A stretch of DNA of 63,561 bases, filler included, from Collodictyon triciliatum (lineage: Eukaryota), in NCBI GenBank assembly GCA_043381765.1. It is 13 parts of 13 records of this genome, joined end to end, with 100 filler letters (N's around TTAATTAATTAA, not from the genome) between each part and the next. Parts side by side here need not be neighbours in the genome. Positions count along the whole stretch, not along the records: positions 1 to 4,680 come from JBHJMP010005852.1; 12 more parts are not named here. The stretch is one strand, 5' to 3'. The notes beneath the pieces were generated by a model. That model saw nothing but the letters and a program-made list of their open reading frames with translations. It was not told the DNA's origin and searched no databases. This document shows, one piece after another, positions 1 through 30,050 of this stretch; the first letter of the stretch is position 1; the number at the start of each line of letters is the position of its first letter. Both the position numbers and the translations under genes were made by a program.

Positions 1-2
1 CG

Positions 3-458
3 ATGAATGAGTTTAGAATTACAGGTGTGTTTGTTTGGAATGGTGGGACTCCTTACTGGGTTGTTATTGACAGAGGTGTTTATAAACAAAGAGCAACGAA
101 TACAAAATTCACGGGTGGTACTTTAACTATAGACAGAAACACACCGGAAGATGTATTATTAACGCGTGCGACTGCTACGACTGTTGATTTTAAAAATCTG
201 GTTACTTTTGGTGGGAGTCAAGAGGACTATGATGGATTTAATTTTTGGCTTTCTTTTACAAACGCGACAAGTACTGCTGTTAGTTTTACAAATAGCACTA
301 GTGTATCATTGTTGATAATAGGAAACAGCGGTGTCCAGACTATTACAGCTGGGAGCACAGCAAGTGTTGTTGCTGCAGGTCAAACAAGTACATGTTTAAG
401 GTGTGTTTTTCGGGATACTGCTCCGGGCGGGTTTGGATGGTTTGTATATGGTCGCTGA
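3..458 (+). CDS. C-terminal part of an intronless Thr/Ser/Gly-rich, beta-strand-type protein; possible viral fibre/structural protein
   Basis: Open frame from the contig edge, no introns, composition unlike the host genes, next ORF only 20 nt downstream. Family not recognised. Confidence 0.4.
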   Translation: MNEFRITGVFVWNGGTPYWVVIDRGVYKQRATNTKFTGGTLTIDRNTPEDVLLTRATATTVDFKNLVTFGGSQEDYDGFNFWLSFTNATSTAVSFTNSTSVSLLIIGNSGVQTITAGSTASVVAAGQTSTCLRCVFRDTAPGGFGWFVYGR

Positions 459-478
459 CTTTATTTCTTTTTTATTGT

Positions 479-667
479 ATGGACCCGGTGTTAATTGAAT
501 CGTTGATTATTAACTTGTGTTTGATTGCTGAGCGTGCGATGAAGTATTATTTAAAACACGTTCAAAAGTCATCGTGTTGTGGTAGCGTGATGGAAACACG
601 TGAGCCTAGTCCTGAGATTGAGCTTGAAAAAAATAAATATTTAAGAATGTATGGGCTGACCAACTAA
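479..667 (+). CDS. Small 62-aa hypothetical protein (MDPVLIESL...SSCCG...), probably viral
   Basis: ATG at 479; hydrophobic N-terminus followed by an SSCCG motif; compact intronless arrangement. Confidence 0.4.
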   Translation: MDPVLIESLIINLCLIAERAMKYYLKHVQKSSCCGSVMETREPSPEIELEKNKYLRMYGLTN

Positions 668-686
668 CTAAAAAAAAGAGTTGAAG

Positions 687-848
687 GCTGGCCCATTTTT
701 TTTATTTTTTGGCCCATAAATCCCAAAAAAAAATGGGTAAATCATAAACTCCGCGTAGGCGTTTTTTTTTACACCGAATTAAAATTCAACATAGGCAAAG
801 AAGTTTTTCAGGCATTTTTTTTGGGATTTTTGGGCCAGGTGGGCCAGC
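687..848. repeat. Imperfect inverted repeat (687-735 vs 813-848)
   Basis: tggcccataaatcccaaaaaaaaatg (710-735) pairs with cattttttttgggatttttgggcca (813-837); gctggccca (687-695) pairs with tgggccagc (840-848). Confidence 0.85.
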
Positions 849-1040
849 GCAAAGATACCGCTTATGGTATCAGCAATATGTTTCAATTATTTATATTTAA
901 TTTAAATTATTTATATTCCACATTTGGTATAGCCGTATATGGGAATAGAAGCGTCTAGACGTGTCTAGAAGGTACCGTGCTCTCCGTATATGGTATGAAA
1001 GACTGTGAATAGGGGTATAAATAGGTCGAGATAAATAAAG

Positions 1041-1082
1041 TGACATCATTTATATATTAATATTAATATATAAATGATGTCA
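1041..1082. repeat. Perfect 42-bp AT-rich palindrome
   Basis: tgacatcatttatatattaatattaatatataaatgatgtca equals its own reverse complement. Confidence 0.95.
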
Positions 1083-2010
1083 TTATTTTCTGTGAGCAAT
1101 AATTTGCTATAGGAAATGTTGGCTTTGGTTCGCTAGCCATTGTTCGCATTGACGCTACTTGGTGACCGGGTGGCGGAGAAGTAGTCGGTAATCAGGAATT
1201 GCATCCTGTGGTTTGGCCTGTAGCCTGGGTCTTGTGCTTGCATGAGAGATACAAGGCGAGGTTTAATCTCCTTCTCAGCTTCTTTCCACATGTCTCTCCT
1301 CATAGTGTCGGAGTAGTAGTGAACGCGCAGGTGGCGAGGGAAGCTATTGAGAAAAGAGATTTGTGTGATGTCATCCAGCCTGTTATCAGGAATGGGTGGC
1401 TGGTTGTTGAGTCTTGCTTTACGTGAGTATATGTGCGCTATCCACATAGTCCATAGCAAATGGCCTCGCGTCACTGCCCAGAATGTTTTTGCATCTGGAC
1501 GCAGCTGTTGCAGAGGCCCAAAATATCTCATGGATTGGACCAACAGCCGCAGCCGTCTTGAGTGTCAGCTGAAGAATCTCGCCGGCTGTTTTGTGCAGGT
1601 TTTGAGCCAAGGAACATTGCACAAATGTGTGCTCAATGGATTCATCACCGTTGCTGCAAAGTGTGCATTGTTGGGAGACTTTGCCAGCTTTTGCCGCACG
1701 TGTTCCCATCCATGGCTCCCTATTGGTGATAGTAAGCATTAGAGAGCGGTGATTTGGAAGGACTTGCGGGGTTCGTGCTTGTCCCCAACTCGCGGTGAGC
1801 GGGGTGTGGGTGATGCCCAGTGTTTCTCCCCGTCGTTGATGTTTTGACTTTTTGTAGGATGTTGGCGGCGATATTTTGTATCGAAAGAATTTGGGGTAGG
1901 CAATAGCCATCGAGAACTGAGTAGACTGCGCACCGTTAGACGAGCGCTCGTTCTTGAGGCGGAAGAAGAATGGCGACGGGATGTCGTATGAGATTGGTCT
2001 GCCTGAGCGC
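1083..2010 (-). mobile_element. 5'-truncated non-LTR retrotransposon, family A (L1/Tx1-like ORF2 C-terminus with zf-RVT-type zinc knuckle), frameshifted
   Basis: CTLCSNGDESIEHTFVQC motif (1419..1910 frame), then after a frameshift LLWTMWIAH...LITDYFS...NG* (stop at 1133). Related copies at 18404 and 39480. Confidence 0.8.
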
Positions 2011-2074
2011 CATTTTTACTTTGCTCTTCAAATTCTTTTCATTTTCATTCTTCCATTACTGACTTTATATTTTT

Positions 2075-2186
2075 ATACTAGAATGGGTATACCAATCTTT
2101 CGACTGGCAAACTTCGTCCGCTAGTATCCAAGGTCTCACCAATTTTTTCACTATGGTCGTGTAGAGGTGAAGACTGCCAGGAAAGA
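2075..2186 (-). ncRNA. Putative Fanzor omegaRNA scaffold
   Basis: Immediately 3' of the Fanzor ORF. Nested stems 2096-2109/2175-2186 and 2133-2140/2166-2174; 7-bp pseudoknot-type pairing 2075-2081/2121-2127. Confidence 0.5.
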
Positions 2187-2242
2187 CTCGACAGCCTTTT
2201 TTTAAAGAAAGGTGTATGCATTTTTTGAAGGGTTAAAAGAAC

Positions 2243-3020
2243 TTAGTTGAGTATATTTTTAGCGCTGTTAAAGTCCCTTGTCAAGAATGCACTTTGTTTG
2301 CTTTCTCGGCGATTGCATTATTTAGATAAGTGACATCTATACAACTTTTTTTGAATCACCTTTCAGTTGCACACTTCAGTTTTTTTTTTTTTCGCAGATG
2401 CATCATATCTTGGAGTTATAAATTTATTTACGCTAACTATTTCAAAACGTTTGAATAGTATTTTTCGTAAACCTCTTCCGATTGTTGCCATAAAATGTTT
2501 AATCGGACAATTTCTGCCCCAGTCTCCATACGCCAGTACAACATCCTCGCCAGATGTCTTTTCGATTCGGTCCATAAACAATTCTTCACTTCCTTTTGTA
2601 TTAACATACTGTCTCCATCTCATCTTTCGAAAAGTCACTTGCTTCGTAAAATCTGAATAATTCCATCTGGTATCTTGATTTCATAGGTACATATTTTCGA
2701 AATTTTTCATAATCGACCGTGCATGAATTATATTAATCCAGTTCTGTCTCTAAATCCATTAAAAGATACTGTTAATGTCTCAAATCGCTGATTCTCTTCA
2801 AAAGTCCTGAAACCAAAAGAAACAGGATTTTGTAAACCTGTTGTCATGCATATCCTGAATAATTGTACTTTTCTTTCTCGCGCAAGAGTATTTTGTGATA
2901 TATAATATATTTGCTATCATGTCTTCTTGGTGTGCCGCGTAACGTAATTTCTTACCTGTCTCATCCACCATATAAACCAAATTTAAACTTACCTGCGTCC
3001 ACTCCAACTATTTTTTGTCG
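2243..3020 (-). pseudogene. Fanzor1-type (TnpB-family) RNA-guided endonuclease, degraded
   Basis: Minus-strand fragments in the expected order: KIVGVDAGK (RuvC-I), NLVYMVDETGKKLRY, ETELD*YNSCTVDYEKF, FRKMRWRQYVN, VVLAYGDW, TIGRGLRK, VSVNKFIT (RuvC-II, E>K), eroded Cys motif, FLTRDFNSAKNI (RuvC-III). Several stops and frameshifts. Confidence 0.85.
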
Positions 3021-3042
3021 CTAATAAAGATAACAGCTCTTC

Positions 3043-3338
3043 ACAGCCTGCTGAAACACGCTCGCATTCTTCGCTACTCTGACCGCAAGCGAAGAGAGAT
3101 GTGGGAATGTGTCGTGCGATATCTCCCACAGCATATCCAACCCCTGCTACCCACACAACCAATCAAGCAGTTGGGTCGCCCTCCTGACCAGCTCGCTATC
3201 ACTGACTTCTTTCCAGTGCTACCCTCTCCACGGTAGTGTCTTCCCCTACTCGCGTTTGCTCTCTCCCCTGCGCTCCCATCCCGCCCCTTTGTATGGCATA
3301 ACCTTGCTACACTTTGAATCGAATAAAGGTAAAAAAAA
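3043..3338 (+). mobile_element. 5'-truncated non-LTR retrotransposon, family B (ORF2 C-terminus, 3'UTR, A-tail)
   Basis: Encodes ILRYSDRKRREMWECVV...LAITDFF, nearly identical to 18920-19247 (-). Ends ctttgaatcgaataaaggt(A)n. A second diverged tail lies at 3361-3385. Confidence 0.85.
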
Positions 3339-4521
3339 TAATCTAAAAACCCTTTCTTCCCTTGAATCTAATTAAGGGAAAAAAAGTATTTTGTGACCTT
3401 TTTATTTACCTATTATACTATTATATCATTCAAGGAGCTTCTTGGAAACATCAAAGCTCTTGAGTATATCGATTCTAATATTTGGTGTCATAATATCGTA
3501 ATAATTAGTGCCTTAATTGTATATTATGGTGCCATCATAATTGTTAAATTATTATCCACATATATACATGATGCAGACATAATTTCCAAAACGAAGGGAG
3601 CCACAGAAAACTCCACATATAGAAAATTGAATACTTTGGACTTTTCATGTGTGGCGAATTTCTTTCGCCACACCCACCACATATTCATAGAAAATAAAGA
3701 AACTATCACCTAATGCGGATTATTTTTTTACCCTGAAATCAATTGGCCTTGTAGTAAAAAGAGAATCGGCCAAACCATTAAATTTTCTCTTTCAAGAATA
3801 ACAAATATGTAGAAAATTTCCTAATAAATGAAATATGAAAGAATGATTCATTCGCACTCAAGTTATTCTGTCACCAAGGTCTGGAGGTTTTTTTTTTCTA
3901 GTCCATGCCTCCCAGCTCCCTCACAAGAGAACAAAAGGAAGTTTTCTCAGCCGGGGCAATTTCGTCTTGTTCGCCTTGGAGAATATATATAGCCCCCAGG
4001 AAGAGATTTCCTCCACAATTATTTAAAATTTCAAAATCGGGGTCGAAGAGCACGTAATATATGTTGGTTCGTATAAGACGCCAAGCGCGCCTCTCTTGGA
4101 CTATTATTTGGGCTATTTAAAATATAATCAATAGGCAGAATATGGCAATGAAAACCAATGAGTGGGAGAGAAACAAAGGCCTCGGGCCAAAGGATGGGGA
4201 GGGAGAGGAGTGGACACAAAGACACGCAACAAAAAGGGTTTGTGGCGTAACTTGGGGGACAAGGTGCCGAGGGGCGGGGCTTGGTGGTTATAACCCCTGC
4301 TCTCATTCATGCTTTGTCCTATACTTGTGCAAGCTACATTTCGATCATTCCCAAGACGCGACACAAAAACTCCCCCGTCCCTATTGAAAAAAGAGAAAAT
4401 AGTGAAGAGAGAGAGGGAGAGAGATGGGACAGCCGCAAGAGGACGAACCTTTGCAAGACAAATGGTGGCACTAATAAACACCGCAGTGTGCAGCCCCTTC
4501 CTTAGACCCACTCCAACCAGC

Positions 4522-4680
4522 CACAAACACAAACACAAACACAAACACAAAGACAAACACAAAGACAAACACAAACACAAACACAAAGACAAAGACAAAG
4601 ACAAAGACAAAGACAAAGACAAAGACAAAGACAAAGACAAAGACAAAGACAAAGACAAAGACAAAGACAAAGACAAAGAC
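4522..4680. repeat. (CACAAA)n/(GACAAA)n microsatellite at contig end
   Basis: Direct inspection. Confidence 0.95.
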
Positions 4681-18919: not shown

Positions 18920-19247
18920 AAAATTCCTTTATTCGATTCAAAGTGCAGCGAGGTTATGCCACACAAAGGAGCGAGATAGGTGCGCATGGTAGAGACCAAA
19001 CGCGAGTAGGAGAAGAAAATACTGTGGAGAGGCTAGCACCGGAAAGAAATCAGTGATAGCAAGTTGGTCAGATGGGCGATCCAACCGGTCGATTGGTTGC
19101 GCGGGTAGCAGGGGTTGGATATGCTGTGGGAGATATCGCACGACACATTCCCACATCTCTCTTCGCTTGCGGTCAGAGTAGCGAAGAATGCGGGTGTGCT
19201 CCAGCAGGCTGTTCACGAAGCTGTATTGCACGAGGCTTTCAAGCCTG
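18920..19247 (-). mobile_element. Family B LINE 5'-truncated insertion, 328 bp, 14-bp TSD
   Basis: cagacgaaaacaaa at 18906-18919 and 19248-19261; homologous to 3043-3338. Confidence 0.9.
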
Positions 19248-27499: not shown

Positions 27500-28303
27500 A
27501 TGGACGGGAATGTTTTGTGTCTCGTGTCCGCGATTCGACTTCGTTGCTCGATAAATAGGATATTGAGCTCCGAATGTTCACATAGCTGGCACACAATTTG
27601 CACTATTTACACATGGGAAATTCAATTTTTATGCTCTATGCATGAATAAACCTTCCTTTATGTATTATAACAAAAACATCGACTAATTGTGTGCTTGCGC
27701 AAAACAAAGTGCTAAAAGCGAAAGATAAAATAAAGTAACTGATTGCACAGGACTTACGGTTTTCGTATTCCGGCATAGTGGAAAGCCTTTGCAAATTGTG
27801 TGTGAAGCAGACTTTGTTGCTCAATAAACAGGGTATTGGGCTTCGAATGTTCCACATAACTAACACACGTTGCTCTATTTTCACAAAGGAGATTCAATTT
27901 TTGTGCTCTATGCATGAATAAGCCTTCCTTTATGTATTATAATAAAAACATCGGCTAATGTATGCACTTGCCCAAAGTGCTCATTGTGAAGAGCATAAGA
28001 ATATCTGATTGCTAAAGACTTACGGCTTTCGTATTCCGGCATAGTGGAGAGCCTTAGAGTTCTTCGTGTCCACGATTCGACTTTGTTGCTCAATAAACAT
28101 GGAATTGGGCTTCGAATGTTCACATAGACTCACATATTTCACTATTTTCACAAAGGAAATTCAATTTTTGTGCTCTATGCATAAATAAACCTTTCTGTAT
28201 GAATTATATATATATATATATATCAAAAACATCGACTAATTGTGTGCTTGCGCAAAACAAAGTGCTAAAAGCGAAAGGCAAAATAGAATATCTGATTGTT
28301 TAG
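27500..28303. repeat. About three tandem copies of a ~270-290-bp repeat, each containing a derivative of the 54-bp unit
   Basis: gacttacggYtttcgtat at 27751, 28017, 28304; tgctctatgcat near 27632, 27904, 28171. Confidence 0.85.
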
Positions 28304-30050
28304 GACTTACGGCTTTCGTATCCGGGCATAATGCAGAGCCTTTGCGGGTCTTTGTGTGTGAAGCAGGCATCGTCGTATTCGGGCATAACGCACAGCCTTT
28401 GTGGGTCTTGTGTGTGTGAAGCATACATCGTCGACGTTCGGCATAGTGGAGAGCCTTTGCGGATGTTGCGTGTGTGAAGCAGACTTCGTCGTATTCCGGC
28501 ATAGTGGAGAGCCTTTGCGGGTCTTGCATGAGGCAGACTTCGTCAACGTTCGGCATAGTGCAGAGCCTTTGCGGGTCTTGCGTGTGAAGCAGACTTCGTC
28601 GACGTTCGGCATAGTGGAAAGCCTTTGCGGGTCTTGTGTGAAGCAGGCATCGTCGTATTCGGGCATAGTGGAGAGCCTTCGTGGGTCTTGAGCGGAGAAG
28701 ATCTCGTCGTATTCCGGCGTAGTGGAGAGCCTTTGCGGGTCTTGTGTGGAGCGGACTTCGTCGACGTTCGGCATAGTGGAGATCCTTTGCGGATGTTGCG
28801 TGTGTGAAGCAGACTTCGTCGACGTTCGGCATAGTGGAGATCCTTTGTGGGTCTTGTGTGGAGCAGACTTCGTCGACGTTCGGCATAGTGGAGAGCCTTT
28901 GTGGGTCTTGTGTGGAGCAGACTTCGTCACATTCCAGCATAGTGGAGCCTTTGTGGGTCTTGTGTGGAGCAGACTGCGTCGTATTCCGGCACAGTGCAGA
29001 GCCTTTGCAGCCTTCGTGTGTGAAGCAGACTTCGTCGCAGTCCGGCATAGTGGAGAGCCTTTGCGGGTCTTGTGTGGAGCAGACTGCGTCGTATTCCGGC
29101 ATAGTGGAGAGCCTTCGTGGGTCTTGTGTGAAGCAGACTTCGTCGACGTTCTGGCATAGTGCAGAGCCTTTGCGGGTCTTGTGTGAAGCAGACTTCGTCG
29201 ACGTTCGGCATAGCGGAGAGCCTTTGCGGGTCTTGTGTGGAGCGGACTTCGTCGACGTTCGGCATAGTGGAGATCCTTTGCGGGTCTTGTGTGAGGCAGC
29301 CAGCGTCGTATTCCGGCATAGTGGAGAGCCTTTGTGGGTCTTGTGTGAAGCAGATTTCGTCGTATTCCGGCATAGTGGACAGCCTTCGCGGGTCTTGTGC
29401 GAGGCAGACTTCGTCGACGTTCGGCATAGTGGAGATCCTTTGCGGGTCTTGTGTGGAGCAGACTGCGTCGACGTTCGGCATAGTGGAGATCCTTTGCGGG
29501 TCTTGTGTGAGGCAGCCAGCGTCGTATTCCGGCATAGTGGAGAGCCTTCGTGGGTCTTGAGCGGAGAAGATCTCGTCGTATTCCGGCGTAGTGGAGAGCC
29601 TTTGCGGGTCTTGTGTGAAGCAGACTTCGTCGCAGTCCGGCGTAGTGCAGATCCTTTGAGGGTCTTGCGTGTGTGAAGCAGACTGCGTCGACGTTCGGCA
29701 TAGTGGAGAGCCTTAGCGGGTCTTGTGTGAAGCAGACTGCGTCGTATTCCGGCATAGTGGAGAGCCTTTGCGGGTCTTGTGTGAAGCAGACTTCGTCGAA
29801 GTTCGGCATAGTGCAGAGCCTTTGCGGGTCTTGTGTGAGTAAAGCAGACTGCGTCGAATTCCGGCACAGTGCAGAGCCTTTGCAGTCTTCGTGTGTGAAG
29901 CAGACTGCGTCGACGTTCGGCGTGGTGGAGAGCCTTTGCGGGTCTTGTGTGAAGCAGACTGCGTCGACGTTCGGCATAATGGAGATCCTTTGCGGGTCTT
30001 GTGTGAGGCAGACTTCGTCGACGTTCGGCATAGTGCAGATCCTTTACGGT
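28304..30050. repeat. GC/CpG-rich tandem array, ~54-bp unit, roughly 32 copies
   Basis: Consensus gtgtgaagcagacttcgtcgacgttcggcatagtggagagcctttgcgggtctt; 18-aa periodicity in the ORF track. Confidence 0.95.

Follow-up and report, generated by a model that had tools for sequence, protein, structure and literature searches.

A broken Fanzor1 gene tail and its flanks

The stretch of Collodictyon triciliatum DNA analysed here (the window, 63,561 nucleotides with filler) consists of one contig at positions 1-4680 and of other contigs joined by N-TTAATTAATTAA-N linkers, across which no linkage is implied. The minus strand of 2243..3042 holds the C-terminal third of a Fanzor1 pseudogene, from RuvC-I to RuvC-III, as identified by six-frame translation, HMM and PDB matches, and the indels that set it apart from sister copies; it is broken by several frameshifts and stops. 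A dead Fanzor1-type gene had been proposed at 2243..3020 by the sequence-only reading, with the motifs VGVDAGK (Asp at 2997-2999), YGDW, GRGLRK and TRDFNSAKNI. All of them were recovered by six-frame translation, the minus-strand motifs IVGVDAGKF, LAYGDWG, IGRGLRKIL, VSVNKFIT and FLTRDFNSAKNI lying over two frames interrupted by stops. An HMM of 83 full-length relatives matched the window frames with 125.3 bits (E 7e-40, 2983-2186) and 39.8 bits (E 5e-14, 3026-2592), and none of the four remaining frames gave a match anywhere in the 63.5 kb. The motif set is not the product of chance. An alignment with 18 sisters gives the window copy about eight indel sites, one of them common to its closest sister.

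The RuvC-I Asp, in the triplet D-A-G, was placed at 2997..2999 on the minus strand by six-frame translation and sister alignment, and the RuvC-III Asp, in the TRDFN of the stretch TRDFNSAKNI, at 2273..2275 on the same strand, where 53 of 55 copies have Asp. At the RuvC-II alternative-Glu site (2423..2425, minus strand) the suspected change from Glu to Lys is borne out by a comparison of 54 copies: the residues are Glu in 44, Lys in 5, Asp in 3 and Gly in 2, and the window copy has Lys, its triad being D-K-D. A stop codon (2403..2405, minus strand) replaces the first zinc-finger Cys, which is kept in 44/54 copies. The HMM and the family alignment also delimit a segment of about 33 codons (2765..2862, minus strand) that is missing from the intact relatives and in frame across the family, and which is either a coding insert or an intron.

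On the N-terminal side, homology to the sister copies stops at 3042, and a 5'-truncated 3' fragment of LINE A, an abundant LINE family, abuts the break (3043..3335, plus strand, 89% identical to 18926-19212), with loose ends at 3043; the gene does halt at a LINE, as had been noted. About 1.5 kb of the element is missing between 3042 and a short relic (about 80 bp) of its upstream non-coding part, at 3384..3462 on the minus strand, which is 77-84% identical to L033, L036 and L042. Targeting of Fanzor by LINEs was considered and rejected: the first six cases were all antisense, and all cases within elements together are 6 antisense to 4 sense for LINE A and 1 to 3 for LINE B. Behind RuvC-III, a candidate relic of an omega-RNA scaffold occupies 2078..2197 on the minus strand (stem A at 2171-2197, stem B at 2136-2170, then a terminal hairpin), and its last part is a Helitron1-type 3' end (2078..2108, minus strand) with a hairpin at 2091-2108, a 9-nt spacer, CTAG at 2078-2081 and T at 2077. 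Beginning 48 bp past this end, 1119..2030 on the minus strand is the 3' part of another LINE family, LINE B (zf-RVT E 1e-7; 91% identical to L048), and is a neighbour outside the element.

A separate repeat family covers window positions 1-1095 (40 of 61 candidates scored, 74 matches) with an open frame at 3-458. A sister of this frame in L260 has at least 380 aa and is beta-rich, and its nearest proteins in the Atlas are unnamed phage proteins (0.94, with recognition below threshold); the DNA behind the frame is conserved and non-coding and includes, at 1033-1088, a 56-bp palindrome found again on many contigs. This family could be a virus-like or Polinton-like element. Elsewhere in the window, 28236-30216 is a long tandem array that is open in several frames on both strands, and loci L045 and L046 have unexplained frames beside their Fanzor copies.

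Identity of the nuclease and decay of its family

The natural 311-aa frame of a sister copy matched only PpFz1, SpuFz1 and GtFz1 in PDB (from Parasitella, Spizellomyces and Guillardia; E 2e-12 to 6e-5), and the same three Fanzor1 chains were the top, weak matches of the window's own 146-aa frame (E 0.01-0.08). A profile of 12 near relatives found these chains at 1e-51 to 1e-76 and no others below E 0.05; the Fanzor2, TnpB and Cas12 chains in PDB gave no significant match to it. Judged from its sequence, the nuclease is a Fanzor1. The sequence-only reading had staked its claim on a match to TnpB/Fanzor profiles, and here the outcome was divided: Pfam was silent on the window's frames and PF07282 matched none of 16 genome candidates, while the HMM of relatives (125 bits) and the Fanzor1 structures were matched. 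Since only one of five intact relatives of the clade passes the Pfam cut-off, Pfam is weak for this clade and its silence is uninformative.

The fingerprints of Fanzor proteins have been defined as an alternative Glu, DPG at RuvC-I, a TDG motif and a split RuvC D-E-D (PMC10711439). The family has the split triad, with Asp in 43/50, Glu in 44/54 and Asp in 53/55 copies, and all three residues together in 33/47, and the alternative Glu stands six residues ahead of the first CxxC (DEFRTSKMCCNC in sister frames). The TDG motif of the WED domain is found in sisters (Thr 47/49, Asp 38/49, Gly 35/47), in a region lost from the window copy. At RuvC-I the family departs from the rule, with Ala in 50 of 51 copies, whereas 70 of 83 relatives have DPG and 13 have other triplets; DPG is described as near-exclusive, not absolute, in Fanzor (PMC10711439). 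On the sequences compared, DAG is a derived deviation within a DPG clade. The copies match, piecewise, residues 2-616 of a 634-aa intact relative, which fits a Fanzor1 of 600-700 aa with a long N-terminal part. PpFz1, SpuFz1 and GtFz1 (9cf0, 8gkh and 9cer; SpuFz1 in PMC10432273) share with the family the split RuvC, the alternative Glu before the zinc finger and the RNA expected at the right end; they differ in being intact, with activity shown, and Spu-1 carries inverted repeats of 30 nt, with a CA motif on its upstream side (PMC10432273). The 33-codon segment is in frame in the family, and matches to P0004 split at residues 413-418 with the frame unchanged; no GT-AG joint skipping the insert was found in contigs of 4 public runs, whose status as RNA is a guess, so that this result speaks neither for nor against an intron. 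A protein of an ENA metagenome, P0003, is 53% identical to the family and has a corresponding insert before LETEL, and its likeness and its insert therefore point to a related family in another organism.

That this genome carries a Fanzor family, as the sequence-only reading had supposed, is now established. A 105-aa piece searched against the 75-Mb genome matched all 150 scored loci of 391 candidates (59-76% identity, excluding itself), and searches with the 3' end and with the 5' part of the element gave 300 and 168 candidates. The family has at least 150 copies, a figure given as a floor because some loci are duplicates, and 300-400 are likely. Two locus pairs have 220-250 nt of common 3' flank at 96% (duplicated loci or haplotypes). 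The flanks of L002/L012, L003/L013 and L071/L077 are likewise common at about 96%; the assembly therefore contains duplicated regions or haplotypes, which may have raised the copy counts. Inside the element L002 and L012 are 92% alike and L003 and L012 94%, a hint of exchange between copies.

The tree of 54 copies is a star, each copy being 4.8-9.3% (about 7%) from the majority state, with divergences at codon positions 1, 2 and 3 of 0.066, 0.071 and 0.069. Rare alleles have a pN/pS ratio of 0.9 and shared alleles one of 0.71, with no bias among codon positions in the latter (46/52/46), and the majority frame is open, with no stop in 285 codons. Because the tree is a star, divergence is equal over codon positions, the majority frame is open and D-E-D is kept in 33/47 copies, we take a single coding source to have been copied in a burst and its copies to have decayed afterwards. 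This decay has been neutral. Going by its sequence, with D-E-D and an open majority frame, the source probably had the gene of a complete RNA-guided DNase. The window copy and its sister L004 have 26 derived changes in common, including a 1-nt deletion, at different genomic sites; damaged copies were thus duplicated too.

The suggestion that intact copies may exist found no support in the assembly. In 63 rows no stop-free stretch is longer than 311 aa, and in 16 more loci none is longer than 210 aa, against 634 aa in the nearest intact relative (40 additional stretches served the analysis of ends only), and with that relative as query no stop-free match exceeded about 193 residues in the best 70 of 1,146 candidates. 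None of the copies examined works today. A young copy may have been collapsed in this assembly of 14,576 contigs.

A probable carrier of Helitron1 type

On the 3' side the copies end sharply and alike, with a 7-bp hairpin followed after about 9 nt by CTAG and then T, as in Helitron1. Among 109 ends CTAG is exact in 57, with T next in 56 of these 57 and in 88 of all 109. The 3' flank is A-rich to about +13, and it is so also behind the RepHel-linked Helitrons of the genome, where T is next in 8 of 8. In Helraiser, a canonical Helitron1, the hairpin similarly stands about 10 nt before CTAG, T is next and the 3' flank is rich in A and T (PMC4778049); Helraiser differs in being autonomous and in starting sharply with TC after A (PMC4778049), whereas the Collodictyon element has no RepHel and a blurred start. 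Its full-length copies measure 3.3-4.2 kb, and their 5' end dissolves into a (GTTT)n tract, the start lying just upstream of the tract; TC or TT after A is seen in some copies only, where Helitron1 would lead one to expect A followed by TC. In seven copies (L005, L012, L031, L035, L045, L073 and L098) the terminal hairpin shows its loop in reverse-complement form, as expected from a stem-mediated micro-inversion. L023 and L042, only 86% alike inside, have CTAA for CTAG, and their next 26 nt are identical before they diverge; terminator read-through is possible there.

The RepHel remnant and the shared subterminal segment are the strongest evidence for a Helitron carrier. The long copy L076 has about 630 extra bases, which are shared by a subfamily (58 candidates, of which 40 were scored); in 6 of 18 fetched places of this segment a Fanzor lies downstream on the same strand, and the 5 of these with a recorded end finish like the family. 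With L076, seven loci have a RepHel 5' remnant and a Fanzor on one strand. Aligned over 458 columns with a decayed RepHel-PIF1 Helitron, the segment shows 76% identity to that element's 5' UTR and first codons. Fanzor-less Helitrons have the same segment, the following 140 bp or so (72-75%) and a T-rich tract, and then at once a hairpin and CTAG or a decayed form of them. In the short and common Fanzor form some 100 bp of that stretch survive together with the T-rich tract, and the Fanzor cassette begins where the terminator of the Fanzor-less Helitrons would stand. The sharing of sequence up to the place of the terminator thus points to capture by end bypass, and terminator bypass giving new 3' ends has been shown for Helraiser (PMC4778049). 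Copies with the long RepHel remnant are a minority (1 of 24 chosen regardless of it) and are of the same age in their Fanzor part. As part of the best explanation as a whole, we consider it highly probable that the carrier is a non-autonomous Helitron1 derived from a RepHel element. The exact mobilising partner, a RepHel element with the terminal hairpin of the Fanzor element, was not found among the RepHel Helitrons of this genome that were examined.

The genome holds RepHel Helitrons, including an intact-looking RepHel frame. At 627-4208 of L094 (G000:C6377) lies a RepHel frame with STPR repeats, Helitron_like_N and the start of PIF1; it spans at least 1,194 codons and contains no stop in its readable part (it is partly masked and cut by the contig end), and is possibly a recently active Helitron. 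Loci L101-L114 and L225-L231 belong to a non-autonomous Helitron1 family that starts with TCTATAC, contains a long GGATTATGACAC-type minisatellite and forms head-to-tail tandem junctions (CTAG-TCTATAC). The four loci L280-L283 match one another at 90-93% through some 2.5 kb and represent a larger repeat unit that encloses a short Helitron.

The closest parallel in structure is offered by CRe-1, -2 and -3 of Chlamydomonas reinhardtii, which are non-autonomous Helitron2 elements (PMC3627910; CrFNuc in PMC10530073). They too have a Fanzor1 as sole cargo, intact 3' ends, many 5'-truncated copies and high copy numbers (150, 70 and 35 loci; PMC3627910). Unlike them, the Collodictyon family has a Helitron1-type end (CTAG followed by T), no family-wide target site duplication and no demonstrated intron, and all its examined copies are dead, about 7% from the majority. 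Helitron2 of the CRe type is marked by asymmetric terminal inverted repeats (ATIRs), a 5' hairpin and insertion behind TTTT. In the Collodictyon family inverted matches between the ends are at most 8 nt and the 3' end is CTAG followed by T; ATIRs can be of 8 nt, and the 5' end is blurred.

Origin, rival explanations and significance

The nearest full-length relative is 46% identical. It and its own 80-88% relatives sit in 3.3-kb elements with terminal inverted repeats (TIRs) of about 33 bp and a DDE_3 transposase, several of them in long giant-virus contigs. Within the fetched flanks of 103 viral or metagenome loci, a Mariner transposase was present in 17 and RepHel in none. The phylogeny called for by the sequence-only reading was built as a quick tree of 55 rows, with no named Fanzor, and it places the family and two metagenome fragments beside the clade of Mariner-borne giant-virus proteins (SH-aLRT 89). 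These viral Fanzor1 (PGv-1 type, PMC3627910; L122-L128) are the closest intact proteins and are homologous over their full length, and a similar TTCACC...A5G...AGACC motif stands just behind their RuvC-III. They differ in their TIRs, their TA ends, their frequent DDE transposase, their DPG and their lack of the 33-codon insert; the Collodictyon family, for its part, combines DAG with the insert and a Helitron end. The placement in the tree suggests, and does not prove, a transfer from virus to nucleus.

The two stems behind RuvC-III resemble a motif kept in the giant-virus 3' ends, with weak statistics: in a profile of 20 viral 3' motifs, 31 of 44 weak matches fall on stem B of the copies (best E 0.17), and the z scores of the scaffold stems are -1.6 in the window copy and -1.7, -2.0 and -4.8 in three sisters. 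We read the stems as a candidate relic of the omega-RNA scaffold, in which the Mariner end would have been swapped for the Helitron end.

We interpret the pseudogene stretch, with a probability of about 0.82, as the last 965 bp or so of a single dead copy of a non-autonomous Helitron1, 3.3-4.2 kb long, that has a Fanzor1 as cargo. Inverted repeats and target duplications, by which the sequence-only reading had hoped to name the carrier, do not lead to it: the longest inverted match between the ends of 13 full-length copies is 5-8 nt, which leaves no TIR, and a family-wide target duplication is rejected. Both TIRs and the TA duplication of Tc1/Mariner are absent from the family and present in its viral relatives. 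It is these relatives on Mariner elements, together with near-duplications in single copies (L270 with 9/10, L071 and L080 with 7/9), that would speak for a Fanzor1 on an unclassified or cut-and-paste element with 9-10-bp target duplications, whose Helitron-like end would be a coincidence. An ungapped test lends this a weak excess of flank matches (9 of 22 copies with a 9-nt match of at least 7/9, against 20% of cross pairs; p 0.01-0.03, the best of nine settings). However, no excess of flank duplications was seen in 13 full-length and 20 truncated copies, and in a gapped test of 19 full-length copies, from which 21 loci were dropped because their end was unrecognisable or a GTTT block or flank was lacking, 2 exceeded the 90th percentile of cross pairs (p 0.16-0.36); a universal 10-nt duplication, when simulated, brings 70% above that mark. 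No empty sites were present among the fetched loci. Eroded duplications may exist in a minority of copies; they are no argument against a Helitron, because 10-70% of Chlamydomonas CRe copies have one (PMC3627910). With the RepHel remnant and the shared subterminal segment also against it, an unclassified or cut-and-paste carrier of this kind is improbable. Still more so, to the point of being hardly credible, is the idea that the copies are remains of integrated giant-virus DNA and not a transposon: their nearest relatives do sit in giant-virus contigs, and the frame at 3-458 is phage-tail-like, but the copies have sharp common 3' ends and unrelated host flanks, and that frame is absent beside other copies.

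Given a Helitron carrier, the question is what the nuclease did for it. If active, the Fanzor would, as in TnpB/Fanzor biology (PMC10432273), take its guide from RNA that extends beyond CTAG into the flank, and would cut empty alleles. On the same carrier the Helitron end would then have been the 3' end of the omega-RNA and the 3' flank the guide, with repair of the cut alleles restoring the element. The open majority frame with D-E-D, the scaffold-like stems kept up to the terminus and the lower pN/pS of shared alleles agree with such a role, as does the report that in Chlamydomonas Fanzor-bearing Helitrons have target site duplications and Fanzor-less ones do not (PMC3627910). Against it, codon positions are unbiased even for shared alleles, damaged copies such as the window copy and L004 were duplicated, no conserved TAM can be seen on the 5' side of the element, and the scaffold end of the viral relatives has been replaced. 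We therefore regard active homing by the Fanzor as unlikely, if still worth considering. Its most explicit form is the more doubtful: a giant-virus Mariner Fanzor1 would have been captured by a Helitron1 through terminator bypass while still functional, the hairpin and CTAG would have doubled as the 3' end of the omega-RNA, each rolling-circle insertion would have written a new guide, and the DAG nuclease with its 33-residue insert would have driven homing-like retention while the burst raised the copies to several hundred. Because RepHel alone explains the spread, we take the Fanzor mainly as a passenger, which on a Helitron carrier seems somewhat the better guess than a helper.

For the Helitron1 with Fanzor1 cargo, the following history may be proposed. 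A Fanzor1 cassette of the giant-virus lineage that rides on Mariner would have reached the nuclear genome, where a short upstream Helitron may have lost or bypassed its terminator and read through the cassette, and a new hairpin and CTAG at the close of the omega-RNA region would have been adopted as the Helitron end. RepHel acting in trans would then have copied the composite to hundreds of A-T-type sites. The copies would have died, and the window copy would have been cut further by the LINE insertion and a deletion.

Helitron-borne Fanzor1 genes are already known (PMC3627910; PMC10530073; PMC13565253), in the searchable papers so far as Helitron2. No Helitron1-borne Fanzor is described in the searchable Fanzor and Helitron literature; Repbase, which contains further Helitron cases of Fanzor (PMC13565253), and supplements may hold such cases. 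With at least 150 copies the family exceeds the 122 per genome reported previously (PMC10530073) and is similar to CRe-1. The role of Fanzor for Helitrons has been called open (PMC13565253), and the family would bear on it only if an intact copy appears.

The window copy is of no value as a source of an editing enzyme, and the family is of interest as a well-preserved record of gene capture. Fanzor1 genes hop between transposon types, and the swap is rarely traceable. Here one genome holds RepHel Helitrons, their Fanzor-less derivatives, a Fanzor subfamily with a RepHel stump and the shorter main form, with the Mariner-borne viral relatives outside it. Collodictyon would thus offer a concrete case of transfer from virus to nucleus followed by capture by a Helitron.
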